This document shows positions 1-20,094 of a stretch of DNA of 64,000 nt, piece after piece (the first letter of the stretch is position 1; each line of letters starts with the position of its first letter). The position numbers were made by a program, and so were the translations under genes. Below the pieces are notes generated by a model. The model made no database searches. It saw only the letters and a list, made by a program, of their open reading frames with translations, and was not told where the DNA came from. This DNA comes from an uncultured Myxococcales bacterium (GTDB lineage: Bacteria; Desulfobacterota; Binatia; UBA1149; SPBQ01). The stretch spans positions 93,239 to 157,238 of the forward strand of contig CAZKRI010000032.1 in NCBI GenBank assembly GCA_964555245.1, given 5' to 3'.

Positions 1-29
1 CGCCCTCGGCTACGTGGACTGAGGCGGCG

Positions 30-608
30 TCATCGCCCCGCGCTGGCCGCTTCGGTTTTGAAGTACACGATATACGACAGCACGCGGCCGACCAGGAGCT
101 GGGCCTGTTCTCGAGCCGGAGCCGCGTTGCCGTTCCGTGCGACTGCGTCCGGGCCAACGTTCCACGCCGCCGCCATGAGGTCGAGACGGCCGTCGAACTG
201 GCGGCCGTAGCTCGCACTGAGAAAGCAGGCGATCAGGATGTTGATCGCAGGGTCGTGGAGGCCCTCGAGCGTGAGCGCGCCGAGCATGCGCTCGTCGACG
301 TAGCTAAAATCGAAGCCGCTGGTGATCAGCCGCTGGGCGGCCGTGCGGCCGGTGACGGGCAGAATCTGCGTGAGACCGATCGCGCCGCTCGATGAGACCG
401 CTCGCGGGTCGCCGGAAGACTCCGCCAGAATGAGGGCGCGGATGTAGTCCGCCGGCACGGTGGTGTCATCGTAGCTCAGAGCCGAGAAGTAGCGGATGTA
501 CCGGTCGATCTCGCGAAGGCGGGCCAGTTCCGTCGACGATGGCTTCCGCGCGGTAACATCAGCTGCCGCCAGCGGCTGAGCCCACAGCACCGCCACCAAA
601 CCCGCCAT
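30..608 (-). CDS. Lytic transglycosylase (SLT domain) with N-terminal signal peptide. Start chosen at MAGLVAVLW (ATG 608) rather than the longer upstream frame.
   Basis: Motif AESSGDPRAVSSSGAIGLTQI matches the SLT catalytic ES...GLMQ region. Hydrophobic N-terminus after the internal Met. Confidence 0.75.
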   Translation of the reverse strand: MAGLVAVLWAQPLAAADVTARKPSSTELARLREIDRYIRYFSALSYDDTTVPADYIRALILAESSGDPRAVSSSGAIGLTQILPVTGRTAAQRLITSGFDFSYVDERMLGALTLEGLHDPAINILIACFLSASYGRQFDGRLDLMAAAWNVGPDAVARNGNAAPAREQAQLLVGRVLSYIVYFKTEAASAGR

Positions 609-786
609 GGCGAGCCCCCGCGGGATCGGCTTGGCGCGGCGCAGGGACGCACGCCTCCCCCAACCGACTCCTCCCACCGCTACCGATGGTTGCGGAAAGC
701 GAGACCGAGGGCAACAGATCCAAGGGGCTGGTGAGAAAGGGGCCGCGGCGGGCCCGCGCGTTAGCGCAGGCCCGCCGTCGTGGGCG

Positions 787-3700
787 TCAGAAGTTCAATA
801 GATGCCAGCCGCTACGCTGCTGGGTCCAGATGCTGGTGATGGAAGCCACGTCGTCGACCCCGGCAATCTGCAGCGTCATTTCCGGCATGACCGCCGCTCC
901 GAAATCGTTGAACGCCTTAACCTTGAAGATGTACCACCAGTTGGCGTCGAGCTTCTTCACCTTGATGGCAACCAGGAACAGGCCGTTGCGCAGGCCCGGG
1001 CTGTCCTTCGCCGAACGGTCTCGGAAACGGAAGCGCCCGTTCTGGCGGAAGATCAGATCGCCGGGCAACAGCTCGCCACGGTAGATCGTGGCGACGTCAT
1101 TGGAGAGCAGGACGCGGAAGCCGTCGGCGACCGGGTTGATGAGCGCCGGATTGACCACGACGCGCCCACGCAGCTTCAACAGATCCTTCCCTACCGGACT
1201 CAAGCGGATCACGCCCGGATCCTGGGCGATCACCTTGCATGCACTGACCTCGTTGCAGGTCGCGCCGCAGGTCGGAGCACTGGAGGCGTCGCAGCCGCTG
1301 TCCTCGCAATCGATCAGGCTGTCACCGTCATCGTCGATGAGGTTGTCGCAGATCTCCACGGCGGGCGGATCGCATTCTTCACCGCAGGCCACGTCGAGCA
1401 TGCCGTCGCCACAGGTGGTTCCGGCCGCAACGCAGATCCCGGCCACGCAGGCATCATCGGGTGTGCAGGCGTCACCGTCGTCGCACCCGAGGCCTTCGTT
1501 CATCGGCACCACGTCGCATGCGTTGGCCGCCTCGTCGCAGAACCCGGTGCCGCAGCTGCTGGTCAGGGGAGAACAGTCGATCGTGGTGCCAACGTTGCAA
1601 GCCCCACCGGCGGCGCAGCGCTCACGCCCGTCGCAGAACAGGCCGTTGTCGCACAACGCATCGTTGGGCGTGACGCTGCAGACGTTGAGGATCTCGTTGC
1701 AGAACCCTACGGCGCAGCCGACGGTCGCCCCCGAACAGTCCACGCGCGGGCCACTCCCGCAGCCGAACTGCGGGTCGCAAATCTCGGCCCCGTCACAGAA
1801 CAGGCCGTTGTCGCACAGCGTGTTGTCGGTCGTATTCTCGCAGAGGTCGGTGGTCTCGTTACAGGTATCGACCGTGCAGGAGATGGCGTCGGCGCAATCG
1901 ATCGCCGTACCCGCAACGCAGCCCACTCCGACCTGACAGATCTCGACGCCGTTACAGAACAGCGTGTCGTCGCACAGCGTGTCGTCCGGCGTGCTCACGC
2001 AGATGTTATTCACGTCGTCGCAGATCTCCACGGTGCATGGAATGCCGTCGTCGCAGGCCGGGCCGGTGCCGGGCTGACAGCCCAGCAGCAGGTCGCAGGT
2101 CTCACCGCCGTTGCAGGTGACACCGTCGCTGCACAAGACGTCGGCAGGCACGTTGACGCAGCGGCGCCCGGCTTCGTCGCAGCCATCGATGGTGCAGGTG
2201 ATCGCATCGTTGCAGGTGACGGGCACACCCGAGAGGCAGCCGGCAAACAGATCGCAGGTTTCCGCACCGTCACAGAACAGACCGTTGTCGCACAGCGAGT
2301 TGGCCGGCACGTGCGAGCACGTATCCGCAACCTCGTCGCAGGCGTCGACCGTGCAACCGATGCCGTCACTGCAAGCAACCGTCGCTCCGGCCTGGCAACC
2401 GGCGGTTGCGCTGCACACTTCGGCCCCGTTGCAGAACAACCCGTCGTTGCAGAGGCTGTTGGTGGGAACGTTCACACAGGCATTGGCAACGGTGTTGCAT
2501 GCGTCGATCGTGCACACGATGCCGTCGTTGCAGGTGGGCGCAGCCCCGGCCTGACATCCGAGCAACGCGTCGCACACCTCCGTGCCGTTGCAGAAGAAGC
2601 CGTCGTTGCACGCCACGTTATTCGGAGCGTTCACGCACGAGTCGAGCGTCTCGTTGCAACTGTCGGTCGTGCACGCGACAGCGTCGCCGCAATTGACCGG
2701 TGCACCGGCCTGGCAGTCGTTTATGACATCGCAGGTTTCTGGCCCGTTGCAAAAGAGCCCGTCGTCGCAGATCGCGTTGTTCGCAATATGGGTACAGGTG
2801 TCGGTCGTCTCGTTGCACGCATCGGTCGTGCACCCGACGCTGTCGTTGCAGTTGACCAGCGCAGCGGCCTGACAACCGATCAACGCATTGCACGTCTCGA
2901 CGCCGTTGCAGAACAGGCCGTCATCGCACAAGGCATTGCTCGTGGTGTTGAGGCACTGGTCGCCAATCTCATCGCAACTGTCAACCGTGCAGCTCACACC
3001 GTCGCTGCAATTGACAGGAGTGCCCAGTTGGCAACCCAGCAGCGCGTTGCAGGTCTCGACGCCGTTGCAGAACTGGCCATCGTTGCAGACCGCATTGTTC
3101 GGCGTGTTGTCACACTGGTCCGTGGACTCGTTACAGGAGTCGGTCGTGCATGCCACCGAATCGGTGCAGCTCACCGGAGTGCCCGCCTGGCAGCCCAACG
3201 TTGCGTTGCAAGACTCCACGCCATTGCAGAACTGGCCGTCGCTGCAGGCTGCATTGCTCGGCGTGTTGTCGCAGGCGTCGGTCGCTTCGTTGCAAGCGTC
3301 GATCGTGCAGGCCACCCCGTCGTCGCAGTTGACTGCGGTGCCGACCTGGCAGCCCAACGTGGCGTTGCAGGCCTCCGCCCCGTTGCAGAACAGACCGTCG
3401 TCGCAGACCGCGTTGTTCGGCGTGTTGTCGCAGGCATCGGTCGCTTCGTTGCAAGCGTCGATCGTGCAGGCCACCCCGTCGTCGCAATTGACTGAGGTGC
3501 CGACCTGGCAGCCCAACGTGGCGTTGCAGGCCTCCGCCCCGTTGCAGAACAGACCGTCGTCGCAGACCGCGTTGTTCGGCGTGTTGTCGCAGGCATCGGT
3601 CGCTTCGTTGCAAGCGTCGTTCGTGCAGGCCACCCCGTCGTCGCAATTGACTGAGGTGCCGACCTGGCAGCCCAACGTGGCGCTGCAGGTCTCCGCCCCG

Positions 3701-4350
3701 TTGCAGAACAGACCGTCGTCGCAGACCGCGTTGTTCGGCGTGTTGTCGCAGGCATCGGTCGCTTCGTTGCAAGCGTCGACCGTGCAGGCCACCCCGTCGT
3801 CGCAACTGACTGGGGTGCCAGCCTGGCAGCCCAACGTGGCGTTGCAGATCTCCGCACCGTTACAGAACGCCCCGTCGTCGCAGGCCGCGTCGTTGGGCGT
3901 GTTGTCGCAGGCGTCGGTCGCTTCGTTGCAAGCGTCGATCGTGCAGGCCACCCCGTCGTCGCAGTTGACCGGGGTGCCCGCCTGGCAGCCCAACGTGGCG
4001 TTGCAGGTTTCGGCCCCGTTGCAGAACGCCCCGTCATCGCAGGCCGCGTCGTTGGGCGTATTGTCGCAGGCGTCGGTCGCTTCGTTGCAAGCGTCGATCG
4101 TGCAGGCAACCCCGTCGTCACAGGTCACCGCGGTGCCACCGGTACAGGTCGCGGCCTGACAGGTTTCGCCGGTGTTGCAGAACAAACCGTCGTCACAAGG
4201 CTGCAGGTCGCAGCTCGGGTCGAGGCAGTCGACGAGTAGATCGCCGTCGTTATCGATACCGTCGGTGCAGTCGCTCTCGGCGAGCGCAGTCCCGGGCGCA
4301 AGCACGGCAGCAAAGAGGAAGGCAAGCAGGAAACGCCTCGTGTGTCGCAT
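787..4350 (-). CDS. Giant secreted cysteine-rich tandem-repeat protein: signal peptide, about 18 units of a 53-54 aa CDDGxxCTxDxC-type repeat (resembles Dictyostelium-type CTDC and myxobacterial Cys-rich repeats), then a non-repetitive C-terminal domain of roughly 160 aa.
   Basis: Start at MRHTRRFLLAFLFAAVLAPGTALA (ATG 4350). Repeats CDDGVACTIDACNEATDACDNTPNNAVCDDGLFCNGAE(A/T)CNATLGCQ. Element CGDGMLDVACGEECDPP resembles a myxo-type Cys repeat. N-terminal CTDGIDNDGDLLVDC resembles the MopE-like metal-binding motif. Confidence 0.7.
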   Translation of the reverse strand: MRHTRRFLLAFLFAAVLAPGTALAESDCTDGIDNDGDLLVDCLDPSCDLQPCDDGLFCNTGETCQAATCTGGTAVTCDDGVACTIDACNEATDACDNTPNDAACDDGAFCNGAETCNATLGCQAGTPVNCDDGVACTIDACNEATDACDNTPNDAACDDGAFCNGAEICNATLGCQAGTPVSCDDGVACTVDACNEATDACDNTPNNAVCDDGLFCNGAETCSATLGCQVGTSVNCDDGVACTNDACNEATDACDNTPNNAVCDDGLFCNGAEACNATLGCQVGTSVNCDDGVACTIDACNEATDACDNTPNNAVCDDGLFCNGAEACNATLGCQVGTAVNCDDGVACTIDACNEATDACDNTPSNAACSDGQFCNGVESCNATLGCQAGTPVSCTDSVACTTDSCNESTDQCDNTPNNAVCNDGQFCNGVETCNALLGCQLGTPVNCSDGVSCTVDSCDEIGDQCLNTTSNALCDDGLFCNGVETCNALIGCQAAALVNCNDSVGCTTDACNETTDTCTHIANNAICDDGLFCNGPETCDVINDCQAGAPVNCGDAVACTTDSCNETLDSCVNAPNNVACNDGFFCNGTEVCDALLGCQAGAAPTCNDGIVCTIDACNTVANACVNVPTNSLCNDGLFCNGAEVCSATAGCQAGATVACSDGIGCTVDACDEVADTCSHVPANSLCDNGLFCDGAETCDLFAGCLSGVPVTCNDAITCTIDGCDEAGRRCVNVPADVLCSDGVTCNGGETCDLLLGCQPGTGPACDDGIPCTVEICDDVNNICVSTPDDTLCDDTLFCNGVEICQVGVGCVAGTAIDCADAISCTVDTCNETTDLCENTTDNTLCDNGLFCDGAEICDPQFGCGSGPRVDCSGATVGCAVGFCNEILNVCSVTPNDALCDNGLFCDGRERCAAGGACNVGTTIDCSPLTSSCGTGFCDEAANACDVVPMNEGLGCDDGDACTPDDACVAGICVAAGTTCGDGMLDVACGEECDPPAVEICDNLIDDDGDSLIDCEDSGCDASSAPTCGATCNEVSACKVIAQDPGVIRLSPVGKDLLKLRGRVVVNPALINPVADGFRVLLSNDVATIYRGELLPGDLIFRQNGRFRFRDRSAKDSPGLRNGLFLVAIKVKKLDANWWYIFKVKAFNDFGAAVMPEMTLQIAGVDDVASITSIWTQQRSGWHLLNF
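3191..4144. repeat. Six near-identical tandem copies of a 159-bp (53-codon) unit inside the giant repeat gene. Unit starts at 3191, 3350, 3509, 3668, 3827 and 3986. More diverged copies extend back to about 1200.
   Basis: Direct reading: cagcccaacgtggcgttgcaggcctccgccccgttgcagaacagaccgtcgtcgcagaccgcgttgttcggcgtgttgtcgcaggc... recurs with only a few substitutions at a 159-nt period. Confidence 0.85.
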
Positions 4351-4741
4351 GGATCGTCCTGGCTGTTGGTCTATGCCGAGTGCACAGGCATGGCGATGCA
4401 CAGCACCCACGGTCGGAGAAAGCCGATCTCAGCGTAAACACCATCGGCTCTGACTTGGGATACTGTTGCGCGCCAGCCCGCGATCGGCGGCGCGAAGGCT
4501 GGCCGTCAGCGCGAGCGCGGCCTCTCACCGGCGCTCGCCGACGACAGAAAAAACTCCTTGAATCACGCGGGTTTTGCGCGGACGCGTCGGTCGATGCGTC
4601 CGCAACATTGCGGGGAATCGCCCGCGCCCGGCCCGAATCGACACATAACGCGGGCTCGTCTCCACTGGCCGCCCCGAACGGGGGTGCGGCTAGCCGGAGC
4701 CGCGGTGGCCGCGTCGGACCGTGCTCGAAAGGTGGCCTGCC

Positions 4742-5092
4742 TCAGGCAACGGCCTGAACGGGAACGCCGTCGCTGCTTTGATCGGCCAGACGGCTGATGG
4801 TGCGCGTGAAGTACGCAGCCGCCCCCTCCGACAGCTCTCCCGCGCCCAGCCTCTGACGGGTCTCCGCCAGGGCATAGTAAACCAGGCTGTCCGGAATACG
4901 GGCCGCGAGCTGCTCATAGAGCGCGACCGGCTCCCGATCGCCGCAGAGATCCAGGATTTCCTGCGCGACGGCCGCCCGCGAGTTGGCCTGAGCCCGGCTG
5001 AAGTCGGCCAGCCTGTGTGACTGCTCCTGAATCAGCAGAACCAGAGCGAGGCCAACGGATATCCAAATGACTGCTGTGGCTAGTGCGTCCAC
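4742..5092 (-). CDS. Hypothetical small membrane-anchored protein (N-terminal TM helix VDALATAVIWISVGLALVLLI). Start assigned to GTG 5092, preceded by GGGAGG. The frame stays open up to TTG 5140.
   Basis: Frame looks like coding codon usage. RBS-like GGGAGG 6 nt upstream of the GTG. No recognisable family. Confidence 0.35.
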   Translation of the reverse strand: MDALATAVIWISVGLALVLLIQEQSHRLADFSRAQANSRAAVAQEILDLCGDREPVALYEQLAARIPDSLVYYALAETRQRLGAGELSEGAAAYFTRTISRLADQSSDGVPVQAVA

Positions 5093-5338
5093 AACCTGCC
5101 TCCCAGCGCGGATGCGTACCGCGTGTCTGCCAAGGAGCAATCGTCGTGCCTACGGCGATTGCTCCGCCTGACTCCGAAGATACGCACCTTGGTCGGCAAC
5201 TCCGCATGGCGGACCGCAGGTCAATCCTCAATCTGCTGTGTCGATTTTGTGACGGTCGAGACTTCGACCGTTCCCGCTCTGGGAGTCCTTTCTGCTAGAG
5301 TGAGCCGGCCCAGGCCAACAACGGGGAGAACGCTAGAG

Positions 5339-6334
5339 ATGAATACGGTTGCCTTGCGCTCGTTCGTGGCATCGTCGGTGGTGGCGGTTTGGTTGTCGGT
5401 TGCTGGGACCGCGAGCGCCGGTCTCGGCGATTGCGCCCAACCGTTGTCCACCGGCCCTTCCCCGCTGGCCACCGACTGCCTGTTCATCCTGCGAGTGGTC
5501 GTAGGGTTGCTCACCTGCCCCTCCGATCCCTGTGTTTGCGCCCCCAAGGGGACCCTTCCTGCGTCGGCCACCGACGCGCTTCTCTGTCTCAGGGTGGCGA
5601 CGGGACAGCCACTTCCGTTGAGCTGTCCGTGTGGCGGTAACGGGTGCGATCAGAGCCAGATCCCCGAGTGCGGTGGAACCTGCGGGGACGAAGGACGCAC
5701 CTGCGCGCCGGATCCGTTCGATCCTGGGCATTGCACCTGCCTCAATGCGTGTGAACAGAGCGCAGCGCCGGCTTGCGGCGTGAGCTGCGCAGACATCGGA
5801 TTCCCGGATGAGCAATGTCTGCCGGTCACTCGTACGCCGCAGGGCCAGCCGTCGACCGAGGCTTGTGCGTGCTTGCCGGCCGACCTCGTCAGTTGCGCGA
5901 ACGCCGCTGCGCCGGCTTGTGAAGGTATTTGCCAGGCAGGCAGCACCTGTGAGGACACCGGCGGCGGCTGCGCGTGCACTGCGCAGCCGGTGCAGGGCCC
6001 TTGTGGTGGCGCCTCACCTCCGGCCTGCGCCGGCACCTGCACGGACGGCTTCATCTGCGAAACCTCCGGCGCCGGCTGCGCGTGCGTCGCGTACGTAGGA
6101 CAGCCGGCGAGTTGCTTCGAAGCCGGCGCTCCCGTCTGCGGCGGTACCTGCGCGTCGGGCGATCTGTGCGCCGTCGAAGTTCTCGGCTCGTGCGAATGTC
6201 TGGCACCCTGCGAGGTTTCACCGGCCCCCGCATGCGGCGGCGACTGCCCGAGCGGTGGCACCTGCACCGCCGTGACCGTGAGCACCTCGACCGTGATGCT
6301 CGAGCTCTGTGCTTGCGAGCCGGCCGGCAACTGA
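5339..6334 (+). CDS. Secreted cysteine-rich protein. Signal peptide, then an internally duplicated segment (ATDCLFILRVVVGLL / ATDALLCLRVATGQPL), then about 7 copies of a roughly 30-aa PACxGxCxxGxxCxxxxGCAC repeat.
   Basis: ATG 5339 preceded by GGGGAG. MNTVALRSFVASSVVAVWLSVAGTASA is signal-like. The repeat is read directly from the translation. Confidence 0.65.
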   Translation: MNTVALRSFVASSVVAVWLSVAGTASAGLGDCAQPLSTGPSPLATDCLFILRVVVGLLTCPSDPCVCAPKGTLPASATDALLCLRVATGQPLPLSCPCGGNGCDQSQIPECGGTCGDEGRTCAPDPFDPGHCTCLNACEQSAAPACGVSCADIGFPDEQCLPVTRTPQGQPSTEACACLPADLVSCANAAAPACEGICQAGSTCEDTGGGCACTAQPVQGPCGGASPPACAGTCTDGFICETSGAGCACVAYVGQPASCFEAGAPVCGGTCASGDLCAVEVLGSCECLAPCEVSPAPACGGDCPSGGTCTAVTVSTSTVMLELCACEPAGN

Positions 6335-6552
6335 AACGGCTCGACACCCCCGGTGGGGTGGAGTGGCGCGAGGCCTCGCGATCAACGCGATCGCCATGCG
6401 CGGGGCGGAGCCGAAGCGATCATTCATCGTCGCGGCTAGAAAACCCTTGACCCAAGCTCGCCGTTCGCTATACACGGCATGCCGCCCGGCAGCCCGAGCT
6501 CGCTGGTGGATGCAGCGCGGCGTGCGACGCTTTTACCATCGGGCACTGCCGT

Positions 6553-7956
6553 ATGCGCCATACCTGCGCTTTCCACCCAGCCCTTACGCGTGGGGTTACC
6601 TCATTCTCAGCGCTGATTGCCGTCCTCGCTCTGTGCCTGACGGCACTTGAGCGCTCGGCCGAGGCCAGCCCGGCGTTCATTCCCGACATCTTCAGCGACG
6701 GAATGGTCCTGCAGCGCAACTCGCCCGCACCCGTATGGGGTGAGGCTGCGCCCGACGAACAAATCACCGTCACGTTCAATGGCCAGGAGAAGTCGGCGTT
6801 CAGTAACGGTGTGGGCGAATGGATCGTGCATCTGGATCCCATGCCGGGCGGTGGCCCCTTCGATCTGACGATCTCGAGCTCGAGCGAGAACAGAATCATC
6901 CACGACGTGCTGATCGGCGAGGTCTGGCTGTGCAGCGGTCAGTCCAACATGTCGCTCTCGCGCGTCAAGCACGACGTGCTCAACCAGTACCGCTCGCAGG
7001 TTCGCGGGATCACACGTGTGGGCTGGTCCGATCGTCCCGGTCTGATTGCGTTCCAGTTCGGGCTGGATTTGAGCAACGCGCTGGGCGTGCCGGTCGGTCT
7101 GATCAACAACGCGAAGCGCGGGTCGAGGCTCCGCTCATGGTTGCCGGTGTCGGCGCTCAACGACCCCGACCCGCAGGTCGCCGCCATCGCCTCGGCGTGG
7201 CTGCCGCCCTGGGGAGAGAACTATCCCCTTCGGATGGGTCCATACCTGCGCTACGGCATCCGCGGGGTCGCATGGTGGCAAGGCGAGACGGATCTGCAAT
7301 CGGCTGGCGAGCATCGCCATATCCTTCCAGCGTTCATCCGTGCGCTGCGCGCGGAATGGGGGATTGGCAACTTCCCTTTCCTGTTCGTGCAGACTCCCAC
7401 CGGCCGCGGCCTGCAGCTCGGCAACGCCGCCAAATCGCTGCCAACTAATCCCAACGGCTCACCCCAGGCCGCCGTCCTGCGCAACGCATTCATCACCGCG
7501 TTGCAGGAGCCGAACACGGGAATGGTCGTCACGACTGACTTGGACGGCGGCACGCATCCGCCCAAGCCAGCGCGGCCTACCTATGCGCACCGCCTTGCCG
7601 ACGTGGCGCTAGCCGAGGTCTACGGTCAGAGCTTCATCTACTCGGGCCCGATCTTCCGATCGGCCGTGCTGGAAGGGAACCAGGTTCGCGTGAGCTTCAG
7701 GTCGAACACTTCCGGCGGGCTTTTCGCTCCGGGAGGCGCCCAGCTGCAGGGCTTCGCGCTGTCGGCGGACGGGCAGAGCTACGTCTGGGCAGACGCCGAG
7801 ATCGTCGGCAACGACGTGATCGTCTGGAGCGATCAGGTGCCTGCGCCCGTTGCCATCCGTTACGGCTACGCAACTCGGCCGGCATGGGCGAACCTGTTCA
7901 ACACCAGCGGTATGGGTGCTGCGCCGTTCGCAGCCGCGGTCACGCCCGGTCCCTGA
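6553..7956 (+). CDS. Sialate O-acetylesterase-like carbohydrate esterase (SASA / SGNH-type) with signal peptide.
   Basis: GEVWLCSGQSNM active-site Ser motif and overall SASA-like layout. N-terminal hydrophobic segment. Confidence 0.75.
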   Translation: MRHTCAFHPALTRGVTSFSALIAVLALCLTALERSAEASPAFIPDIFSDGMVLQRNSPAPVWGEAAPDEQITVTFNGQEKSAFSNGVGEWIVHLDPMPGGGPFDLTISSSSENRIIHDVLIGEVWLCSGQSNMSLSRVKHDVLNQYRSQVRGITRVGWSDRPGLIAFQFGLDLSNALGVPVGLINNAKRGSRLRSWLPVSALNDPDPQVAAIASAWLPPWGENYPLRMGPYLRYGIRGVAWWQGETDLQSAGEHRHILPAFIRALRAEWGIGNFPFLFVQTPTGRGLQLGNAAKSLPTNPNGSPQAAVLRNAFITALQEPNTGMVVTTDLDGGTHPPKPARPTYAHRLADVALAEVYGQSFIYSGPIFRSAVLEGNQVRVSFRSNTSGGLFAPGGAQLQGFALSADGQSYVWADAEIVGNDVIVWSDQVPAPVAIRYGYATRPAWANLFNTSGMGAAPFAAAVTPGP

Positions 7957-8019
7957 AGCGCCCTGCAACCCGCAGCGCACTCCGCGCCCGTCGACGCAGC
8001 CTGCCCCCCCCTCGATCGC

Positions 8020-8859
8020 CTATCCGAAGTACGCCGCGGCGAAGTCGCGTAGGCCGTCGCGCGCCTCCGGCGACCGTCGCCAGGGTGCGACGATCAGCCG
8101 GTCGACACCGGCTCGTCGCCACAGCTCAATCTCATCGCGGCCGCGCACATCCGCCATCACCGTGACCGTGAAACACTCGGCAAGCCGGCCAGCCTGGGCA
8201 CGCAACTCGCGCAGCCTAGCCACCGGTCGCGCCACGCTCGCCGGGGTGTGTTGAAGTCCGATCCAGCCGTCGCCCGCGACCGCCGCACGGCGCAGCGCGG
8301 CTTCGGACTCCCCGCCGACGTGAAGCGGCGGCCAGGGTTTTTGCGTCGGCTTGGGCTCGAACACCACCGGTTCGAACGTGAAAAACTCCCCGTGGTGCTC
8401 TACCACCGGCTCGCTCCAGAGCCGCTTGCAGATGGCCAGCGCCTCATCCAACCGCCGCCCGCGGCTCGCGAAGTCGACGCCGGCGGCCCGGCACTCGCCG
8501 GCAAGCCAGCCGGCGCCGATGCCGATCTCCGCACGGCCCCCCGAAACGATGTCGAGAGTCTGCACGGCCCGCGCAGCGACGAAGGGATGCCTCAAGCCCA
8601 GCAGGTAGACGTGAGTCCCGAGCCGGACCGTGCGGGTCTGTCCTGCCAGGAAGGAAAGATACGCAAAACAGTCGAAGACCGGGGTGGTCGCGGCCACGGG
8701 AGGCTCGTTCAGGCCCGGGTGCGGTGAGCCCGACAGCGTCTCGGGGAAGATCAGGTGCTCAGGCAGCCACACCGATTCGAAACCGAGCCGCTCGGCCTCG
8801 ATGGCGACCGCCAGATGGAAGGCGGGGTTGAGCCGTCCGAGCGCGACGCCGAACCTCAT
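8020..8859 (-). CDS. Luciferase-like monooxygenase (LLM) / F420-dependent oxidoreductase family protein.
   Basis: MRFGVALGRLNPAFHLAVAIEAERLGFESVWLPEHL is a typical LLM N-terminus. TIM-barrel-like family pattern. Confidence 0.75.
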   Translation of the reverse strand: MRFGVALGRLNPAFHLAVAIEAERLGFESVWLPEHLIFPETLSGSPHPGLNEPPVAATTPVFDCFAYLSFLAGQTRTVRLGTHVYLLGLRHPFVAARAVQTLDIVSGGRAEIGIGAGWLAGECRAAGVDFASRGRRLDEALAICKRLWSEPVVEHHGEFFTFEPVVFEPKPTQKPWPPLHVGGESEAALRRAAVAGDGWIGLQHTPASVARPVARLRELRAQAGRLAECFTVTVMADVRGRDEIELWRRAGVDRLIVAPWRRSPEARDGLRDFAAAYFG

Positions 8860-8862
8860 CGG

Positions 8863-9639
8863 TCACAGAGTGTAGCGGCCGTCCTCGGTCAGGCGCCATC
8901 CGCCGGCGGCGGCCGTGCCACCGTCCACGTGCAGCGTCGTCCCGGTCACGAACAGCGATAGATCGGAGGCGAGGAACAGCGCCGCGCCCGCGACGTGGTT
9001 GGGGTGCCCCTTGCGTGCCAGAGGCGCACGCACCTGCGGATCTCCGATTCCCGGCGTGGGGATCAGGTCGGGCGCGATGGCATTGACGCGGATCCGCCGC
9101 GCGCCGAGCTCCAGAGCAAGGGTCCTGGTCAGGTTCTCGACCGCGGCCTTCATCGCCGCATAGATCGCGTATCCCGGGGCACCGCGCCCGGCTTCGATCG
9201 AGCTGATGTTGAGGATCGAGCCGCCGGTATCGGGAAACAGCGGGAGCGTCGCGCGGATGCAGTTCGTCACGCTCGTGAAGTTCTCCGCAATGAGGGCGTC
9301 CTGCGCATGGGCACTGAGCTCCGCGAACGCGGCGTGAAAACCCCCTCCGGCGTTGTTGACGAGCACGTCGACCCGGCCGGCTTCCGCACCAACCCGGGCG
9401 ACGAACGCGCCCACGGCCTCGCCGTCGCGCACGTCAAGGCGCCCGGTCCATGCCCGCCGGCCCAGGGCCCGCACCGAGCGCGCGGTCGTCTCGAGGTTCA
9501 CCTCGTCGCGGTCGCAGATCGCCAGGTCGGCGCCGAAGCTGGCCAAGGTCAGTGCGATCGCCTCGCCGATCCCGGCGGCGGCCCCGGTAACGAGCGCGAC
9601 GCGGCCTTCCAGCGAGACGGTAGCAGGACCGAGCGGCAC
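8863..9639 (-). CDS. Short-chain dehydrogenase/reductase (SDR).
   Basis: VTGAAAGIGEAIAL Rossmann motif, NNAG, and catalytic YAAMKAAV. Confidence 0.85.
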   Translation of the reverse strand: MPLGPATVSLEGRVALVTGAAAGIGEAIALTLASFGADLAICDRDEVNLETTARSVRALGRRAWTGRLDVRDGEAVGAFVARVGAEAGRVDVLVNNAGGGFHAAFAELSAHAQDALIAENFTSVTNCIRATLPLFPDTGGSILNISSIEAGRGAPGYAIYAAMKAAVENLTRTLALELGARRIRVNAIAPDLIPTPGIGDPQVRAPLARKGHPNHVAGAALFLASDLSLFVTGTTLHVDGGTAAAGGWRLTEDGRYTL

Positions 9640-9710
9640 CGGCCCAAGCTATCAGCCGGACCTCCGCTCGTCACGCCGCCGCCCGGCACCAAGCCTGCCA
9701 CGATCGCGCG

Positions 9711-10292
9711 GTGGACGTTCGCGAGCGAAGGGTCCTGGTCAGAACCGCCGCCGTGCATGAGAATGCCGCCGTGAGCTGGCTGGCACACGCGGCCGGAACC
9801 GGCGCGACGTTTGCGCAGGTGTTCGGCCTTTGCCCAGAGCTTCATCGTGGGTTCGAGCGTTTTTACGGATTGTTCTGGCAACGGCGGCTCGTGGATCCGG
9901 TGGTACTCGAGCTGTGCCGGTTGCAGGTGGCCGCGCTGCTCGGCTGCACCGTCGAGCGCGAGGTGCGCTACCGCGCCGCCGTCGAAGCCGGGTTGACGGA
10001 AGCCAAGGTTGCCGAGCTTTCCCGCTGGCGAACCAGCCCGAGCTTCAGCGAACTGGAGCGGGCTTGCTTGGGTTTCGCGCAGCGGTTCGTCACCGACGTG
10101 CACGGGCTTACCGATGAGGACGTCGCCGCTGTCTCTCGTCTGCTCGGCGAACCGGGAACGGTGGCGCTCGCCGAGGCGATCGCCTTGTTCGAGGGCTTCT
10201 GCCGCTTCCGCCTCGCGCTGGACGTCCAGAGCGAGGTCCAGGGGACCGTTCCCACTCCGACGGCCGAGCCCACGGGTAGGCTCGAACGATGA
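9711..10292 (+). CDS. Carboxymuconolactone decarboxylase (CMD/AhpD-like) family protein. Start uncertain (in-frame GTGs downstream of the ATG at 9711).
   Basis: AhpD-like core (…LELCRLQVAALLGCTVEREV…). Ends in ATGA overlap with the next gene. Confidence 0.55.
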   Translation: MDVRERRVLVRTAAVHENAAVSWLAHAAGTGATFAQVFGLCPELHRGFERFYGLFWQRRLVDPVVLELCRLQVAALLGCTVEREVRYRAAVEAGLTEAKVAELSRWRTSPSFSELERACLGFAQRFVTDVHGLTDEDVAAVSRLLGEPGTVALAEAIALFEGFCRFRLALDVQSEVQGTVPTPTAEPTGRLER

Positions 10293-10822
10293 CCAAGCGT
10301 CCGCGCAGCCCGCGTATCCGCCCCCCGCAGCAAGCGGCCGCCGATCCCATTGCCGGCAGTGCGCTCAGCCACCAGCCCGAAACCCTACGGGCGTTCCTCG
10401 ATCTCTACGCAACGCTGTGGGAGGGAGGCTCGGTGGATGCCGCGACCAAGGAGATGGTTCGGCTGCGCAACGCGCAGATCACCGACTGCGGCTATTGAAA
10501 GAACGTTCGCTTCGCCGTGGCGAAGGAGCAGCTTGTCGACGAGTCCGCGGTCGCCCAGATCCAAAATCACCGCGCGTCGACCGTGCTCACCGCACGCGAC
10601 AAGGCGCTGCTCGCTTACGTGGACCTGCTGCTAACGATACCTGGTGCGATCGACGAGCGGGTGACCGCGCAGCTGCTGACGCACTTCTCTCCCGCGCAGA
10701 TCGTCGAGCTGACCGCAGCCGCGGCCGTGTTCCTCGGGTTCTCCAAGCTCGCCATCGCCCTGGGTCCGGTACCGGACGATCTGCCCCGGATGCTCATGCC
10801 GCTGCCCGCTCGCCCCGACTGA
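10289..10822 (+). CDS. AhpD/CMD-family protein read through an in-frame TGA (10496..10498) at the second Cys position of CxxC (…RLRNAQITDCGY-U-KNVRFAVAKEQ…). Candidate selenoprotein; alternatively a pseudogene.
   Basis: ORFs 10289..10498 and 10517..10822 are in the same frame, separated only by the TGA. Family motif C-x-x-C. Stem-loop cuucgc/cgug/gcgaag at 10510..10525 begins 11 nt 3' of the UGA. Confidence 0.55.
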
Positions 10823-10834
10823 ACCCTTCTCGGG

Positions 10835-12196
10835 TCAGCCGGCTAGGGACGCGCCCGCCGCCCCGGCGCTGCCGCAATCGAGACTGGCGCACAGCTCGGC
10901 GAAGCTCTTCACCGTGTGCCGCTTGGCCAGCGACCGGATGCGGGTCGCCGGTCCGATCAGACCGGCAGTGGACAAGACCACGTCGGCGTCCACGGAGGCA
11001 ACCGCGGCCGGCGCGGTCAGCCCGGCGCGCAGCGTCGCCGCAACGGCGACCTCGGCGTAAGCCGCGGCGAACTCGTCGGCGTCGCCGGGACTGTCCCACG
11101 TGGTGAGCCACACGAACTCCAGCCGGGTCCCGCAGCGGGCGACGAGATAGCGATCGCCGTTCCACCCTTCCCAGGCCTCCGGCCGGGCGCTGGCTGCCAG
11201 ATCCCGGAAGAGATAGCTCAGCCCGAGCTCGCCAGCCGTGTTCTCGTAGACGAACGCGCATTCGGCGGGCAGCAGTTCGCGCAACGGGCGCAGATCGATC
11301 GACTGGAAGCCCTCCTCGCGCCGCGAGGGATGGAGCACCTGTTCGGTCGAGATCGGCGGACGTTCCAACAAAAGATCAGCCTCGAGCATGGCGAGTCGGT
11401 AGCCCTTGGTGTAGGGGAACGGCACACCGTAGCGGATCATCGCCGCGCGCTCGTGTAGCCGATTCTCCGAGAGTTCCGCATCGAGGCTCGACTCCAGGTC
11501 GACGGGTGCGGGCGGCGTCATCCGGGCATCGAGCGCCTGAAAGCTGATGCGGACGGCGTCGCCCTCAATCGCCGCTTGCAGCGCCGCCACCACGTCATCC
11601 TGATCCTGCAACGTCTGCGTGGCGCCGATCAGCGCCGGGTAGGCTTGGTGTTGCAGCAGGTGAGTCAGCTCGTGCCCGAGCAACAGCTCACGGGCGAGGT
11701 CGCGCCCCATGAGCGCAGAGACCAGGGAGACCGAGAACGGCGTCTCCGGCTCGTCGACCACGTAGAGCACGCGCCGGCTCGGAACGTAGAGCCCGCCAGC
11801 CTCGGCGCCGACGCTGTCGACGAACTCGGTGAACAGGTCTTGGTCGCGGGGCCATAACCCCACGGCGACCAACCCATCCTGATAGGCGGCCGCCGCCTGG
11901 GGTGGCCACTGCTCCTCCAGCGCGCGCGCCACCGCGGCGCGTAGATCCCCGCTGCTCACGACGCGCGCGTCAACCAGGCCGCGGGCTTGGATCCCGCGCG
12001 CCTGTTCGACGCGGGCGATGATGGCAGCGAACGGCTCGGGACGGATCGCGCCGTCCGAGACGATCGAGCGCGCGCAACCTGCGGCCGCTGCGACGCCTGC
12101 CAGCGCGAGGACCAGCAGAACCCGGGCGCCAGAACCCGATCGCGCGACGGCCTGCCGGCCCGACGATGCGATGCCCGGATGCCGCACGCTAGCCAC
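10835..12196 (-). CDS. Lipoprotein with HExxH zinc-metallopeptidase-like motif (GHELTHLLQH).
   Basis: Lipobox LLVLALAGVAAAAGC, HELTH motif. No confident family assignment. Confidence 0.55.
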   Translation of the reverse strand: MASVRHPGIASSGRQAVARSGSGARVLLVLALAGVAAAAGCARSIVSDGAIRPEPFAAIIARVEQARGIQARGLVDARVVSSGDLRAAVARALEEQWPPQAAAAYQDGLVAVGLWPRDQDLFTEFVDSVGAEAGGLYVPSRRVLYVVDEPETPFSVSLVSALMGRDLARELLLGHELTHLLQHQAYPALIGATQTLQDQDDVVAALQAAIEGDAVRISFQALDARMTPPAPVDLESSLDAELSENRLHERAAMIRYGVPFPYTKGYRLAMLEADLLLERPPISTEQVLHPSRREEGFQSIDLRPLRELLPAECAFVYENTAGELGLSYLFRDLAASARPEAWEGWNGDRYLVARCGTRLEFVWLTTWDSPGDADEFAAAYAEVAVAATLRAGLTAPAAVASVDADVVLSTAGLIGPATRIRSLAKRHTVKSFAELCASLDCGSAGAAGASLAG

Positions 12197-12213
12197 GCCG
12201 GGGGCGCAGCCGC

Positions 12214-12528
12214 TCAGCTATCCGAGCCGGTCGCGCGCTCGGCTCGGCGCCGGGCGCGCAGCGCCTTGCGCTCGGCGCGCCGCTCGGTGCGCTTGTCCGA
12301 CTTGTCAGCCGTCCACACCGCGTCCTCATCGAGCCGGTGCACGACCAAGGCCTGCGCCAAGACGATCCCTTCCTGCAAGGCCAAGGCTCGTACGCTCGAA
12401 TCCGGCTCGGCGATCGGCATCGAATCGCCTGCGCGCGAAACGGTCGCGCCGCCGATCAACAACGCGAGCGTAACGACAACGGCCAGAAACAAGCTGATCC
12501 GAAAATGCTTGGTAAACTGCCCCTCCAT
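12214..12528 (-). CDS. Hypothetical small membrane-anchored protein with basic C-terminus.
   Basis: N-terminal TM segment ISLFLAVVVTLALLIGGATV. Arg/Glu-rich tail. Confidence 0.4.
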   Translation of the reverse strand: MEGQFTKHFRISLFLAVVVTLALLIGGATVSRAGDSMPIAEPDSSVRALALQEGIVLAQALVVHRLDEDAVWTADKSDKRTERRAERKALRARRRAERATGSDS

Positions 12529-12590
12529 CCAACTCCCCCTCCACGCCCGTGCGGCGTCAACGTCTCAGCATAGAGTTCTCTGCTCGAATC

Positions 12591-13073
12591 TCAATACTTG
12601 ACAGTCGCCGACGGATCTGTCGCGCGCCGTTTTCGGCGGCGGCCTTGCAGAAAAGAACGGCCCGGGTCGACGATGAACGCATCGCGGACCGCTTGTCTGC
12701 CCAGCAGCATGCGAAAGCCCATCGCGTCGCGCGAGGTCAGCGTCAGCTCGATGGGAACGCTCAGCTCACCGATCCGCACCGCGGTCTGGATCACCGGCCG
12801 TCGTTCGACCAGGCCGCCAGAGTTTCGGATGCTACGGTACTCGAGCAACGTCGCCTCCGCCTCGACAGCCTCGCGTTCGCTCCGTTGGAACGGTAGCACA
12901 CGAAACCGGACGAGCAGCCGCGCCCCGTGCCGCACGACCCGCACGTCATAGGCGTGCAGCGCCGAGGATCGCGCTCCGGTGTCGACCTTGGCCTTGATCC
13001 GCTCGACTCCGAGCTCCGGGAGGCCAACCCACTCGCGCCAGCCAATCACCTGTCGCTCGGATCTGCCGTGCAT
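12591..13073 (-). CDS. Retropepsin-like aspartic protease of the RimK-associated / DUF785 type (annotated as ATP-dependent zinc protease). Start at MHGRSERQ (ATG 13073); the frame is open to 13157.
   Basis: IGWREWVGLPELGVERIKAKVDTGARSSALHA matches the DUF785 core, including the DTGA aspartyl motif. Confidence 0.6.
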   Translation of the reverse strand: MHGRSERQVIGWREWVGLPELGVERIKAKVDTGARSSALHAYDVRVVRHGARLLVRFRVLPFQRSEREAVEAEATLLEYRSIRNSGGLVERRPVIQTAVRIGELSVPIELTLTSRDAMGFRMLLGRQAVRDAFIVDPGRSFLQGRRRKRRATDPSATVKY

Positions 13074-14377: not shown

Positions 14378-16768
14378 TCAGCCGCGCAAGACCACGGCGG
14401 TCCACGCGTCGCCGCCCTGCTCGGAGTCCGCCGGACCGAACGCCGCTACGTAGGGCGAGCCATCGAGCGCCGCGCGCACCGCGCGCTTGAGCGCGTCGGT
14501 ACCGTGGCCGTGCAGCACGAAGACGCCGTCGTGACCGGCGAGCATCGCCTCGTCGAGAAAGCGCTCCAGGCGTACCAGCGCCTCCTCCACCCGGGTTCCG
14601 CGCAGATCCAGCGTGTTGGCTGCATGGCGCACGATTCGGTTGATGGCGGTCGATCGCGCCGGCTGCGATGAGGATCGGCTCGGCGGCCTCGCGAGTCTGT
14701 CCGGAGCATCCGGCTCGAGTTTGCGCAGTTGGTTCGGCGCGACCCGCACGCTGAGCGCCGCCGCACGCACCTCGACCTCGCGACCACGGACCGCGACCAC
14801 CTCGCCGGTCAAGTTCAAATGCTCGATGCGCACGCGATCGCCCGGTTGCGGGCTGGGCGCTGCGCGGTCCTCGCTCTCCGTCGGCCCGACCATCACCGAA
14901 TCGCGCGTGTGCCGAACGGCCGACCGCGCGGCGGCGGCGGCGGCCGCCGAGGGGGCGCGCTGCAGGTCGGCGACGATGGCGCCGATCTCGCGCTCTGCCT
15001 GGCGCGCCCTTTCCACCAGCGCCGCTGCGGCCTCCTGCTCGAGTTGCCGGGCCCGCCGCCTGATGTGAGCCTCGCGCTCGGCCACCGCGGCTTCACGGCC
15101 GGCTACCTCTTCCAGCGCTCGCTCGGCCTGCAACCGGGTCTCCCGCGCGCGGGTGCGTTCCGCTTCGAGGCTCGCGAGCGTCTCCTGCAAGGCACGCTCG
15201 CCCTGATCCATTAGCGCGCGTGCGCGCGTGACGACCGCCGGCTCGATCCCGGCGCGCAAGGCCGCGGCCAGCGCATGACTTTCGCCAGCCAAGCCGGGGA
15301 GGATGCGATACGTGGGACGCTCGTCACGGTACTCCATCGCCGCGACGCTCACCCGGCGGTCAGCGGCGGACATCGCCTTGAGCTGCGCGTAGTGCGTGGT
15401 GACGACTACGCGCGCACCGGCCTCGGCGAATCGTTCGACGAGCGCGCGGGCGAGCGCGCCGCCCTGGGCGGGATCTGTGCCCGCGGCAATCTCGTCGAGC
15501 AGCAGGAGGGCTCCCGGCCGAACCTCAGCGAGCATCCCGTGCAAGTTGGCCAGGTGGCCGGAGAAGCTGGAGAGTCCACCGTAGACGCTCTGGCGATCTC
15601 CGATGTCGGCTAGCACAGGCTCGAACAGGTCGACCCGGGAACCCTCAGCCGCGGGCACGAAGCAACCGGCGCGCACCAGTAGCGCGCAGATTCCGATGGT
15701 CTTCAGGGCGACGGTCTTGCCGCCCGCGTTCGGTCCCGTCAGCACCAGCACCGGCTGCTCGGCCGTCAGGCGCAAGTCGTTCGCCACGACCTCGGCACGC
15801 TCGAGCACCAGGACCGGATGTCGCGCCGCGCGCAGATCGACGATGGCCTGATCGGCCACCTCAGGCCGCGCGGCGTGCATCCGCAGCGCAAGCTCGGCCC
15901 GCGCCACGATCAGATCGATGGCGGCGGCTGCGGCCAGCGCCGCGACGAGCGCCGGCGCGTGCCGGCCGACCAGCGCACTGAGGTCGCGCAGAATCCGTAG
16001 CTCCTCCGCACGCAGCTCGGCCTCGGCGACGCGGCGCTGATTGTTGAGCGGCACGACGGCATGGGGCTCCAAGAAGATCGTCTGCCCCGAGCGCGAGGCG
16101 TCGTGCACGATGCCGAGGTCGAGTCCCTTGGCGTGCGCCTTGATCGGCACGACGAAGCGTTCTGCGCGGATCGTCACGTAGCGATCCTGAAGCACCCCAG
16201 CGAACTCCTCGTCCACCAGGAGCGCGTCCATCCGCTCGCGCACCCGTCGGTCCAACGCCTGGATCCGCCGTCGCAGCTCGCCCAAAACAGGATAAGCGCG
16301 CTCGCTCAGCTCGCCCCGCTCGTCGAATGCCGAGGTCAAGGTCGACAGCAGCGCCCGATCGATGTCGATCGCGTCACCCGTGGATGCGAGCGTCGGAGCC
16401 GACTGCCGGCGCACGTCGAGAAAGCCGCGCAACCCGACGAGCGCCGCAACCGTGCTGGCCACGGGGCGTAGCTCACCTGCCTCTAGCAGTTCTCCTCGCT
16501 CGCTGCGCGCGACCAGGCCGGCGATATCCTCGACTCCACCCGTCGGCGGAAACGCCCCCTCCGATGTGAGCAGGCCGAGCGCCTCGCCGACCGCATCGAG
16601 CGTCCGGTGAATCGCCGCCAATTCATCGAAAAGGTCGAGTTCCAATGCCGCCCGCCGCCCCGCCGCGGTGCGCGCGTGCGAGGCAAGCGCACCAAGCACG
16701 TACGGCCAGTCCAGTGCCTCGAGGGTCCGTTGGGACAGGTCCATCGAGGCCACCGCTAAGCCGGCCAC
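14378..16768 (-). CDS. mutS2: Endonuclease MutS2 (MutS ATPase core plus C-terminal Smr domain). Start uncertain: GTG 16768 or ATG 16744.
   Basis: Walker A LTGPNAGGKTVALKTIG. C-terminal Smr region LDLRGTRVEEALVRLERFLDEA…VLHGHGT. Confidence 0.85.
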   Translation of the reverse strand: MAGLAVASMDLSQRTLEALDWPYVLGALASHARTAAGRRAALELDLFDELAAIHRTLDAVGEALGLLTSEGAFPPTGGVEDIAGLVARSERGELLEAGELRPVASTVAALVGLRGFLDVRRQSAPTLASTGDAIDIDRALLSTLTSAFDERGELSERAYPVLGELRRRIQALDRRVRERMDALLVDEEFAGVLQDRYVTIRAERFVVPIKAHAKGLDLGIVHDASRSGQTIFLEPHAVVPLNNQRRVAEAELRAEELRILRDLSALVGRHAPALVAALAAAAAIDLIVARAELALRMHAARPEVADQAIVDLRAARHPVLVLERAEVVANDLRLTAEQPVLVLTGPNAGGKTVALKTIGICALLVRAGCFVPAAEGSRVDLFEPVLADIGDRQSVYGGLSSFSGHLANLHGMLAEVRPGALLLLDEIAAGTDPAQGGALARALVERFAEAGARVVVTTHYAQLKAMSAADRRVSVAAMEYRDERPTYRILPGLAGESHALAAALRAGIEPAVVTRARALMDQGERALQETLASLEAERTRARETRLQAERALEEVAGREAAVAEREAHIRRRARQLEQEAAAALVERARQAEREIGAIVADLQRAPSAAAAAAARSAVRHTRDSVMVGPTESEDRAAPSPQPGDRVRIEHLNLTGEVVAVRGREVEVRAAALSVRVAPNQLRKLEPDAPDRLARPPSRSSSQPARSTAINRIVRHAANTLDLRGTRVEEALVRLERFLDEAMLAGHDGVFVLHGHGTDALKRAVRAALDGSPYVAAFGPADSEQGGDAWTAVVLRG

Positions 16769-19700: not shown

Positions 19701-20094
19701 TGTACTGGTTGATCGTGCCTTCGAAGCGATGGATGCCCTCGGTCATGATCGCGAAGAAGCGATCCATGACGAGGTGCCACTCCTCGGGGTCGAGCTGCTC
19801 GGACATCGCCATGGACCCTTGAATATCGCTGAACAGAACGGTGACGCGCTTGCGCTCCCCCTCGAGCGCACTGCGCGAGGAGAGAATCTTGTCGGCGAGG
19901 TGCTTGGGCGTGTACGCGCCCGGTGAGCGTTCGACAGGCTTCTCGATCGCCGCCTGTCCGCAGGCGGGGCAGAACTTTGCAGACGCTTTCAGCGAGGCGC
20001 CGCAGGTCGCACAGGCACGGGCGAGCTTTGCCCCGCACTCCTCGCAGAACTTGGCCGCGGCCTCGTTCGGGTGCTTACAGACGGCACATTCCAT
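16789..20094 (-). CDS. Multidomain signalling protein: double zinc-ribbon, class III adenylyl/guanylyl cyclase domain, AAA ATPase, and TPR/regulatory C-terminal region.
   Basis: CAVCKHPNEAAAKFCEECG…CATCG…CPACG. Cyclase region RVTVLFSDIQGS…YTGDGVMALFGAP. P-loop GVVAEAGTGKSRL. Confidence 0.8.
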   Translation of the reverse strand: MECAVCKHPNEAAAKFCEECGAKLARACATCGASLKASAKFCPACGQAAIEKPVERSPGAYTPKHLADKILSSRSALEGERKRVTVLFSDIQGSMAMSEQLDPEEWHLVMDRFFAIMTEGIHRFEGTINQYTGDGVMALFGAPIAHEDHAQRACFAALHLQSELRKYANELRIERGLPVAARIGLNSGDVVVGRIGDDLRMDYTAQGHSVGLAARMQQIAEPGKAYLTGATADLVRGYFALEGLGRSTIKGVREPVEVFALTGLGELRTRLDVSRSRGFSRFVGRSREVESLEEAFEEVRGGQGRIVGVVAEAGTGKSRLCFEFLERCRERGVTVYETYCLPHGRTLPLFPVLELYRNVFGIKDDDSPERARDKIAGRVVLIDEKLIDTLPLLFDFLGVPDPKRPIPVTDPELRTRRILDVLRRFTAARGERDAVVVLVEDLHWMDPGSTVFFNALIDSVPSGKLLLLLNFRPEFSGRWIQKSYYQQVPLAPLGAGEIDELMDFLLGRHPTLAELRTRVRERTGGNPFFIEEITRELAEQGHIVGARGAFRLETPIDAIPVPGSVQGVLAARIDRLDDEAKQVLQAASAIGRDFPLALLATATERAPSDLAPILSKLVDDEFVYPTALYPDAEYAFKHALTRDVAYESLLGGRRRALHAALGRALESQAHAVRDERAALLAHHYEQAGELLAAARWYERAALWIGQSNVAECYEHWRKVRTLTASIEPTPEVRSQRIRACCQELMRGLRAGASVDAPALLAEARGALEGCDDPHAEIRILIAEGNVAYVDGNMVGAFPLLDRALMAARETGDDYLISAALSFWLVVQTFRDPAAAIATLDQIGEVGIDGASDYMGFQTAGWSRGFSATCAAYAGRYAESLAGADLALEHSRATDDRIDLAITLGLVACVCSLWGDRQRALACVREARRLGEATGVRMAVAVSCACVALTPDISGFGMPVEELEATVQRLAQVAFGFQQFALTFLRAQLALARGDMDAALDLVRQASERVRSTGMRTFIAPALLAEAEILTRMHGGAARAAVDSLLSRARSSIEEMGTRSFAPRVHILRAALEAAAGNHAAAEREREMARRLCEEMGAPVPA

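Follow-up and report, generated by a model that had tools for sequence, protein, structure and literature searches.

The streptococcal Alp/Rib and staphylococcal Bap-type proteins are tandem-repeat surface proteins in which copy number varies by recombination. The Dicty_CTDC repeat (PF00526) marks extracellular matrix proteins of Dictyostelium such as ecmA and ecmB (PMC4931340), and is listed among the repeat families that lack a structure (PMC8078820). The C-rich domain of teneurin-4 binds three Ca2+ ions by way of a set of acidic residues (PMC9058538). The gene considered here lies at 787..4350 on the minus strand of a window of 64,000 nucleotides (nt), that is, the whole stretch of DNA that was analysed (positions 93,239 to 157,238 of contig CAZKRI010000032.1, GenBank assembly GCA_964555245.1, from an uncultured Myxococcales bacterium), and it encodes about 17 tandem Cys-rich modules of 53 residues. 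The favoured reading, held at a probability of roughly 0.6, is that the tandem array in the window makes up the young end of a modular gene, whose product would be a secreted, disulfide-rich and strongly acidic repeat protein with the form of a stalk.

Tandem Repeats Finder places an array with a period of 159 nt at 2578..4137 on the minus strand (9.8 copies, 82% matches, no indels, score 1571), which bears out the 159-bp tandem array that a first-pass annotation of this DNA had reported, in its place, period, frame and gene limits. A degenerate probe for the motif CDDGxFCNG finds 16 minus-strand matches in the gene, running from 1628 to 4197 at a spacing of 159 nt, where none is expected and where dinucleotide shuffles yield none. 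Set out in a 53-codon register, the gene resolves into 15 clean units (R1 to R15), an N-terminal half-unit and two degenerate C-terminal units, so that the earlier figure of about 18 units was about right. According to the register print-out, R1 occupies 3967..4125, R6 3172..3330 and R15 1741..1899, all on the minus strand. The six copies that had been flagged, with starts from 3191 and 3350 up to 3986, are units R1 to R6 (3172..4125, minus strand) with the phase shifted by 19 nt. These copies had been called near-identical, with few substitutions each. The description holds for R3, R4 and R5 (3331..3807, minus strand), which differ from one another by 2-5 nt in 159 (97-99% identity) and form the truly near-identical core and the zone at risk of assembly collapse; it does not hold for the others, as R1 to R6 together span 84-99%, with R1 and R2 at 92% and the remaining pairs differing at 15-25 of 159 nt (84-91%). 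The observation is thus partly confirmed, being real and correctly located with its identity overstated. The nine units R7 to R15 (1741..3171, minus strand) are older and diverged yet keep the same 53-codon register. They are 55-76% identical to any other unit; against R1 to R6, R7 stands at 72-76% and R8 to R15 at 57-72%.

The gene consists of 1187 codons and a stop codon at 787..789. The open reading frame (ORF) extends upstream to a GTG at 4410, and the likely start is the ATG at 4350. An exact match to the protein exists in the public collection (P0001, an NCBI record on a 168-kb contig). GC3 of the gene is 84%, in a window with a GC content of 66%. The syntenic ortholog P0122 (locus L001, 654..4535) gives a ratio of nonsynonymous to synonymous substitution (dN/dS) of 0.11 for units 8-17 and 0.14 for the C-terminal domain, at a dS of about 1.0, and these conserved parts are under purifying selection. 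Two long plus-strand ORFs that overlie the gene (802..3495 and 2888..4159) were rejected as GC-rich antisense artefacts, since both the homology and the dN/dS estimate attach to the minus strand. Scanning 1..5300 for promoters and terminators was uninformative, with no promoter-like site and with terminator-like sites at chance level.

Comparison with relatives shows that the number of units changes. P0122 has 19 units and P0001 has 17, and a gene for an SLT lytic transglycosylase follows both. Units 8-17 of P0001 pair one-to-one with units 10-19 of P0122 at 68-91% amino acid identity, and R7 to R15 are likewise one-to-one orthologous with units of P0122. In contrast, units 2-7 of P0001 lack a one-to-one counterpart: among themselves they share 79-96%, and the closest unit that each has in the ortholog stands at 79-89%. 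The N-proximal units of the array thus appear to be young and the C-proximal modules old, and the pattern points to homogenisation of the N-proximal units within each lineage, with concerted evolution confined to one end of the array. The first 240 amino acids (aa) of P0122 are 78% identical to a paralog, P0069, and 71% identical to P0001, a likeness that may reflect exchange between paralogs. Three N-proximal units of P0122 are of a six-Cys subtype (VDDGVACTDDSCDE.NDV.VN) that is typical of P0069. This paralog (765 aa) is located on the 168-kb source contig of the window, outside the window itself. Two further paralogs, P0070 (1007 aa) and P0077 (1486 aa), are adjacent on one contig (L011, 5001..8024 and 8435..12895) and share the same C-terminal domain; they come from metagenome ERZ27248688, which also holds locus L003. 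The repeat gene belongs to a multigene family.

A second case of unit gain or loss is seen in a sister lineage represented by loci L002 and L003, in which the neighbourhood reads adh_short, luciferase-like, further genes, the repeat gene and the SLT gene. The two repeat genes encode 1876 aa (L002) and 1452 aa (L003), or 28 and 20 units, between flanks of 8000 + 8000 nt that are 100% identical. The L003 gene equals the first 353 nt and the last 4107 nt of the L002 gene; the absent 1272 nt amount to exactly 8 units, and the junction sits in 101 nt of identity. Either recombination has deleted these units very recently or the assembly has collapsed them. In addition, a cluster formed at 90%, with one named member from a Bradymonadia metagenome-assembled genome (MAG), contains proteins of 1359, 1412 and 1465 aa, which are steps of 53 aa. 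The expansion and contraction, or collapse in assembly, that had been proposed for the array are supported by these whole-unit differences between relatives (17 against 19, 20 against 28) and by the 53-aa length steps.

With in-frame, high-identity adjacent units and with counts that differ by whole units between close relatives, the gene has the properties of a variable tandem-repeat protein. It resembles the Alp/Rib and Bap-type proteins in its long in-frame DNA repeats of high identity, in its concerted evolution and in the presence of length alleles among relatives. It differs from them in its module, which is unrelated and is small and disulfide-rich rather than Ig-like, and in its host, an environmental diderm; the surface location of the protein is putative.

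The chief competing explanation is that the number of near-identical units, and perhaps their order, is wrong through collapse or mis-joining of short reads, with the differences among relatives being assembly noise. The material for such an error is present. The longest exact run common to two units is 124 nt, shared by R4 and R5 (3337 and 3496), in the stretch where identity is highest; L003, whose contig carries a MEGAHIT-style name (k141_), is L002 minus exactly eight units with a clean junction; and the genes of two close homologs, P0121 and P0123, are fragments that start inside the array and are cut at contig ends. The caution about assembly voiced in the first-pass annotation is therefore realistic. 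Against an assembly error, neighbouring units in the window differ by at least 2 nt throughout, and mostly by at least 12 nt, and can be told apart; the array itself is found in all orthologs and in thousands of homologs; and counts also differ between lineages whose units are too diverged to collapse, as in P0001 and P0122, where the N-proximal sequence types differ. An artefact could lead to a miscount of R3-R5-type units, but the existence of the array could not be due to it. As an account of the array and of the differences among relatives it is possible, though on balance unlikely, and the three R3-R5-type units in the assembly are a lower bound.

Each 53-residue unit contains eight Cys in two four-Cys halves. 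The A half (C-x5-C-x4-C-x6-C, for example CDDGVACTIDACNEATDACDNTP) has its four Cys within 23-24 aa and is Dicty_CTDC-like; the B half has the spacing C-x5-C-x5-C-x5-C (for example CDDGLFCNGAETCNATLGCQAGTP). The composition of the 795-aa array is extreme, with 120 Cys, 128 Asp and Glu, and 3 Lys and Arg. When the Cys of 1647 units out of 124 homologs were tabulated, all eight were kept in 969 units; exactly Cys1 and Cys4 were absent in 281, as against 26 units that lack Cys1 alone and 6 that lack Cys4 alone. This co-loss argues for a disulfide between Cys1 and Cys4 in each unit. An AlphaFold2 model of units R7 to R9, built from a 37-row alignment of three-unit segments, has a mean predicted local distance difference test score (pLDDT) of 93.4 and shows in each unit a beta-hairpin, a short helix and a second short hairpin. 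No solved structure matches this model: a Foldseek comparison with the PDB brings up nothing but the Gal/GalNAc lectin of Entamoeba, through its Cys-rich heavy chain (E 6e-4, TM-score 0.28).

The repeat family is large: in a search that scored no more than 8000 candidates, at least 5770 proteins reach E<=1e-3. Few homologs have a named source, and these come from MAGs labelled Myxococcales, Deltaproteobacteria, Phycisphaerae, Candidatus Binatia and Thermodesulfobacteriota. Subtilases, P-domains, VWA, malectin, IPTL-CTERM and other domains occur as fusion partners of the repeats in homologs. Two matches, P0019 and P0067, are assigned to the green alga Mesostigma viride (eukprot Mesvir1) and are 47-53% identical over 66-82% of the window protein; bacterial DNA contaminating that assembly, or horizontal transfer, could account for them. 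A 1053-aa ORF elsewhere in the window (32459..35620, plus strand) has a signal-peptide-like start, no Pfam match and a match to a CDDGxFC probe at 33767; related Cys-rich repeats lie at about residues 400-570 (CDDGNVCTDDDC... and CDDGLFCTATDVC...), and a long D/G/N-rich region follows them.

Among described families the nearest is Dicty_CTDC. Units R1 to R5 match PF00526 over five stretches with 26.1 bits (E 7e-6), the gathering score being 27; R6 to R10 reach 16.7 bits, and R11 to R15 give no match to this model. Within the family, 14 of 37 three-unit segments match PF00526 at E<=0.01, and many close homologs bear precomputed PF00526 matches. It is the A half that aligns with the profile hidden Markov model (positions 1-23). 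With a significant but sub-threshold match, the repeat of the window appears to be a relative of Dicty_CTDC and not a curated member. The likeness comprises a repeat of about 24 residues with four Cys, a CxDxxxCTxDxC core, long tandem arrays and occurrence in secreted proteins; the A half, behind an N-terminus that resembles a signal peptide, shows the tandem four-Cys repeat of a secreted protein that is characteristic of the type. The window protein differs in that its unit is a double one of 53 aa, in which a Dicty-like half alternates with another four-Cys half, in that it is bacterial, and in that its older units match not at all. Membership of the Myxococcus cysteine-rich repeat (TIGR02232 / PF13948) was also considered and rejected: neither Pfam nor NCBIfam reports a match to it, and a single CGDG...EECDPP element was noted by eye only. 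PF13948 is carried by some homologs.

The ends of the protein are consistent with export and with a capped array. Residues 1-24 (4279..4350, minus strand), read by eye from the sequence as MRHTRRFLLAFLFAAVLAPGTALA with a predicted cut before ES, form a putative Sec signal peptide with a basic n-region (MRHTRR), a hydrophobic core and an A-x-A site (ALA/ES), and this segment is the sole hydrophobic one of the whole protein. The earlier description of an in-frame repeat within a Cys-rich gene with a signal-peptide-like product is borne out by the ORF, the register and this N-terminus. Next comes an acidic Cys motif, ESDCTDGIDNDGDLLVDCLDPSCDLQPC, at residues 25-52 (4195..4278, minus strand); this segment (ESDCTDGIDNDGDLLVDCLDPSC...) aligns by phmmer with Teneurin-4 (PDB 7plp_A, E 4.8e-4), and 8 of the 9 side-chain positions that serve as Ca2+ ligands are kept, which would make it a putative Ca2+ site. 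A degenerate first module follows (4126..4197, minus strand) of which the B half only, CDDGLFCNTGETCQAATCTGGTAVT, is present. At the other end of the array, two degenerate units and then a Cys-rich linker, with the CGDG...EECDPP element, occupy 1255..1740 on the minus strand in the register print-out; a second teneurin-like acidic Cys motif, EICDNLIDDDGDSLIDCEDSGC, can be read at 1291..1356 (minus strand), and alignments A1 and A3 show conservation of its C and D columns. The teneurin-like motif is thus found at both ends of the array, and variants of it precede the C-terminal beta-sandwich in most family members. The resemblance to the C-rich Ca2+-binding domain of teneurin (7PLP) and to thrombospondin type-3-like motifs, judged at the level of sequence, consists of the pattern E..C.D..DNDGD...DC.D..C over about 25 residues; the remainder of the window protein is unrelated to teneurin.

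The last 155 residues (790..1254, minus strand) form a basic domain (pI 9.9) of an uncharacterised family, modelled as a beta-sandwich with confidence above 90, and no Pfam model matches it. The C-terminal 189 aa drew no scored match in a word-indexed homology search, but an exhaustive search of 1.84 billion proteins found relatives, 279 representatives at E<=1e-3, so that this family is much rarer than that of the repeats. In 137 of 143 representatives no more than 30 residues separate the domain from the protein end, and an acidic DxDxD motif stands upstream of it in at least 62 of 99 members. Cys repeats are present in only 10 of 73 long members; other members bear DUF11 or CARDB-type repeats. 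Because it is terminal in position and is coupled to other surface-type repeats, the domain is taken as an independent C-terminal module.

Under the favoured reading, unequal homologous recombination or replication slippage between adjacent units would duplicate and delete N-proximal units, and gene conversion would homogenise them, while the C-proximal units and the C-terminal domain would be kept by purifying selection. Gain or loss of a unit would make the protein longer or shorter and would not act as an on/off switch, because the units are in frame and consist of whole codons. After Sec export and disulfide formation, the modules would form an elongated, probably cation-binding stalk, with its ends capped by the teneurin-like Ca2+-binding motifs. 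The basic C-terminal beta-sandwich could then bind a ligand or attach the protein to an anionic cell surface or matrix, and the protein may serve as a spacer, either in an extracellular matrix or of an adhesin-like kind, in a role comparable to that of Dicty_CTDC proteins in the matrix of Dictyostelium. Such a role is suggested by the order of signal peptide, Ca motif, rod, Ca motif and beta-sandwich, by the kinship with amoebal repeats and by the occurrence of the C-terminal module on other surface-type repeats.

Several points weigh against this reading. The whole protein finds no match in Pfam or NCBIfam, and the PF00526 score given above does not reach the curated Pfam threshold. What points to a stalk or adhesin role is the architecture only, and the elongated shape and the remaining disulfide pairs are inferred, as the models were read for their confidence values and secondary structure. 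The eight units by which L002 and L003 differ may reflect faulty assembly and not biology. Length is invariant in several related clusters, at 1821 aa (8 full-length members), 1525 aa (4) and 1177 aa (3), and these fixed lengths imply that instability is not general to the family. A second assembly of the population of the window was not found, two scans of metagenome contigs for alleles included.

A more far-reaching proposal joins the two uncharacterised parts of the protein. The basic C-terminal beta-sandwich might be an undescribed module of Myxococcota-like bacteria for sorting or for anchoring at the cell surface, and the 53-residue unit might be a new disulfide-rich fold, possibly lectin-like, tied in evolution to the matrix repeats of the Amoebozoa (Dictyostelium, Entamoeba). 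Taken as a whole this proposal is doubtful.

Improbable, too, is the possibility that the B half is a scytovirin-like four-Cys carbohydrate-binding knot, with the array as a polyvalent lectin for polysaccharide or glycoprotein surfaces. Scytovirin (PF20888; PDB 2JMV) is a cyanobacterial lectin, and the Cys spacing of the B half, together with several residues of the motif C(D/N)GA.TC....CQ.GT, recurs in its repeat RCSNNKQCDGARTCSSSGFCQGT. Four of 37 three-unit segments match PF20888 (best E 2e-4), a profile of the unit aligns in register with both repeats of PDB 2jmv (E 0.034), and the only Foldseek matches in the PDB are, as described, to a lectin chain. These similarities are nevertheless weak: Cys and Gly columns dominate them, and none reaches a curated threshold. 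The three-unit query taken from the window itself has no PF20888 match, and the TM-score to the Entamoeba chain is low. Sugar-binding sites are usually rich in aromatic residues, and such residues are few in the array (17 in 795 aa). Scytovirin is moreover a lectin of two repeats and 95 aa, not a long array. The likeness of the B half is a weak lead that does not establish membership.

Least credible of all is the suggestion that the repeats exist for phase or antigenic switching, giving a population surface variation that is rapid and open to selection: near-identical in-frame repeats at the distal, N-proximal end, length variants in close relatives and paralogs of the same genomes as possible donors (P0069, which shares the 168-kb contig, P0070 beside P0077, and the N-terminal 240 aa of P0122 nearer to P0069) would suit it, but a unit of 159 nt is a multiple of three and makes frameshift switching impossible, dN/dS in the conserved parts is about 0.11, many related clusters are length-invariant, the 2-5 nt by which R3 to R5 differ are too few for a test of diversifying selection, and we know of no host immune pressure on such an environmental organism. 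All of the 2-5 differences among R3 to R5 are nonsynonymous, and positive selection on these units was rejected as a conclusion on the ground that the numbers are too small. No simple-sequence tract was seen within the gene or upstream of it, an observation made without a dedicated scan; in 1..8000, Tandem Repeats Finder reports, besides the 159-nt array, two short 18-nt arrays only, neither of them upstream of the gene. Neither a frame shift nor a change in promoter spacing, by which a contingency locus is recognised, was found. The interpretation offered in the first-pass annotation is accordingly supported in part: expansion and contraction, or collapse in assembly, have support, and the analogy to contingency loci has none, given that 159 = 3 x 53 nt changes length without changing frame, that clusters of fixed length exist and that dN/dS is 0.11-0.14.

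As a tandem repeat the array is ordinary, in that concerted evolution and variable length are common among long secreted repeat proteins, and the window protein is a further member of a large, known and uncharacterised kind of repeat protein. With at least 5770 homologs, no characterised member and no solved structure, the family is of modest biological value, to which the sub-threshold kinship with matrix repeats of social amoebae adds. Usable starting points are the confident AlphaFold2 model, the proposed Cys1-Cys4 disulfide and the unannotated C-terminal domain. There is also a practical warning, namely that gene lengths in this family are unreliable in short-read metagenome assemblies, as two genes with identical flanks differ in length by 8 units.

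The SLT lytic transglycosylase gene lies downstream on the same strand (30..677, minus strand; Pfam SLT, E 6e-15). It follows the repeat gene in L001, L002 and L003 and is not found beside the more distant homologs P0070, P0010 and P0008; a functional link between the two genes was rejected, the pairing being confined to close orthologs. On the other side, a divergently oriented neighbour (5123..6334, plus strand) encodes a 403-aa Cys-rich protein with a motif of its own of about 45 aa (..A.P.CGG.C..G..C....C.C..) and no match in Pfam or NCBIfam; its position is taken in L002 and L003 by an LTD-domain protein and a 284-aa protein. Further along, a 1101-aa protein (16789..20094, minus strand) combines a double zinc ribbon, an adenylate/guanylate cyclase, an AAA_16 ATPase and TPR repeats; its gene adjoins that of MutS2 (14378..16768, minus strand) and is unrelated to the repeat gene. 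The MutS2 of the window is 55-56% identical to that of MAGs labelled uncultured Myxococcales, which makes a deep, Myxococcota-like lineage from the environment the probable source. Scans of the species-representative genomes with the C-terminal module found nothing, so that the source genome is not among them. Finally, ARAGORN calls a tRNA-Ala(GGC) at 22986..23081 (minus strand), which at 96 nt, with the anticodon at position 38, is unusually long for bacteria and may be a mis-call or contain an insertion.

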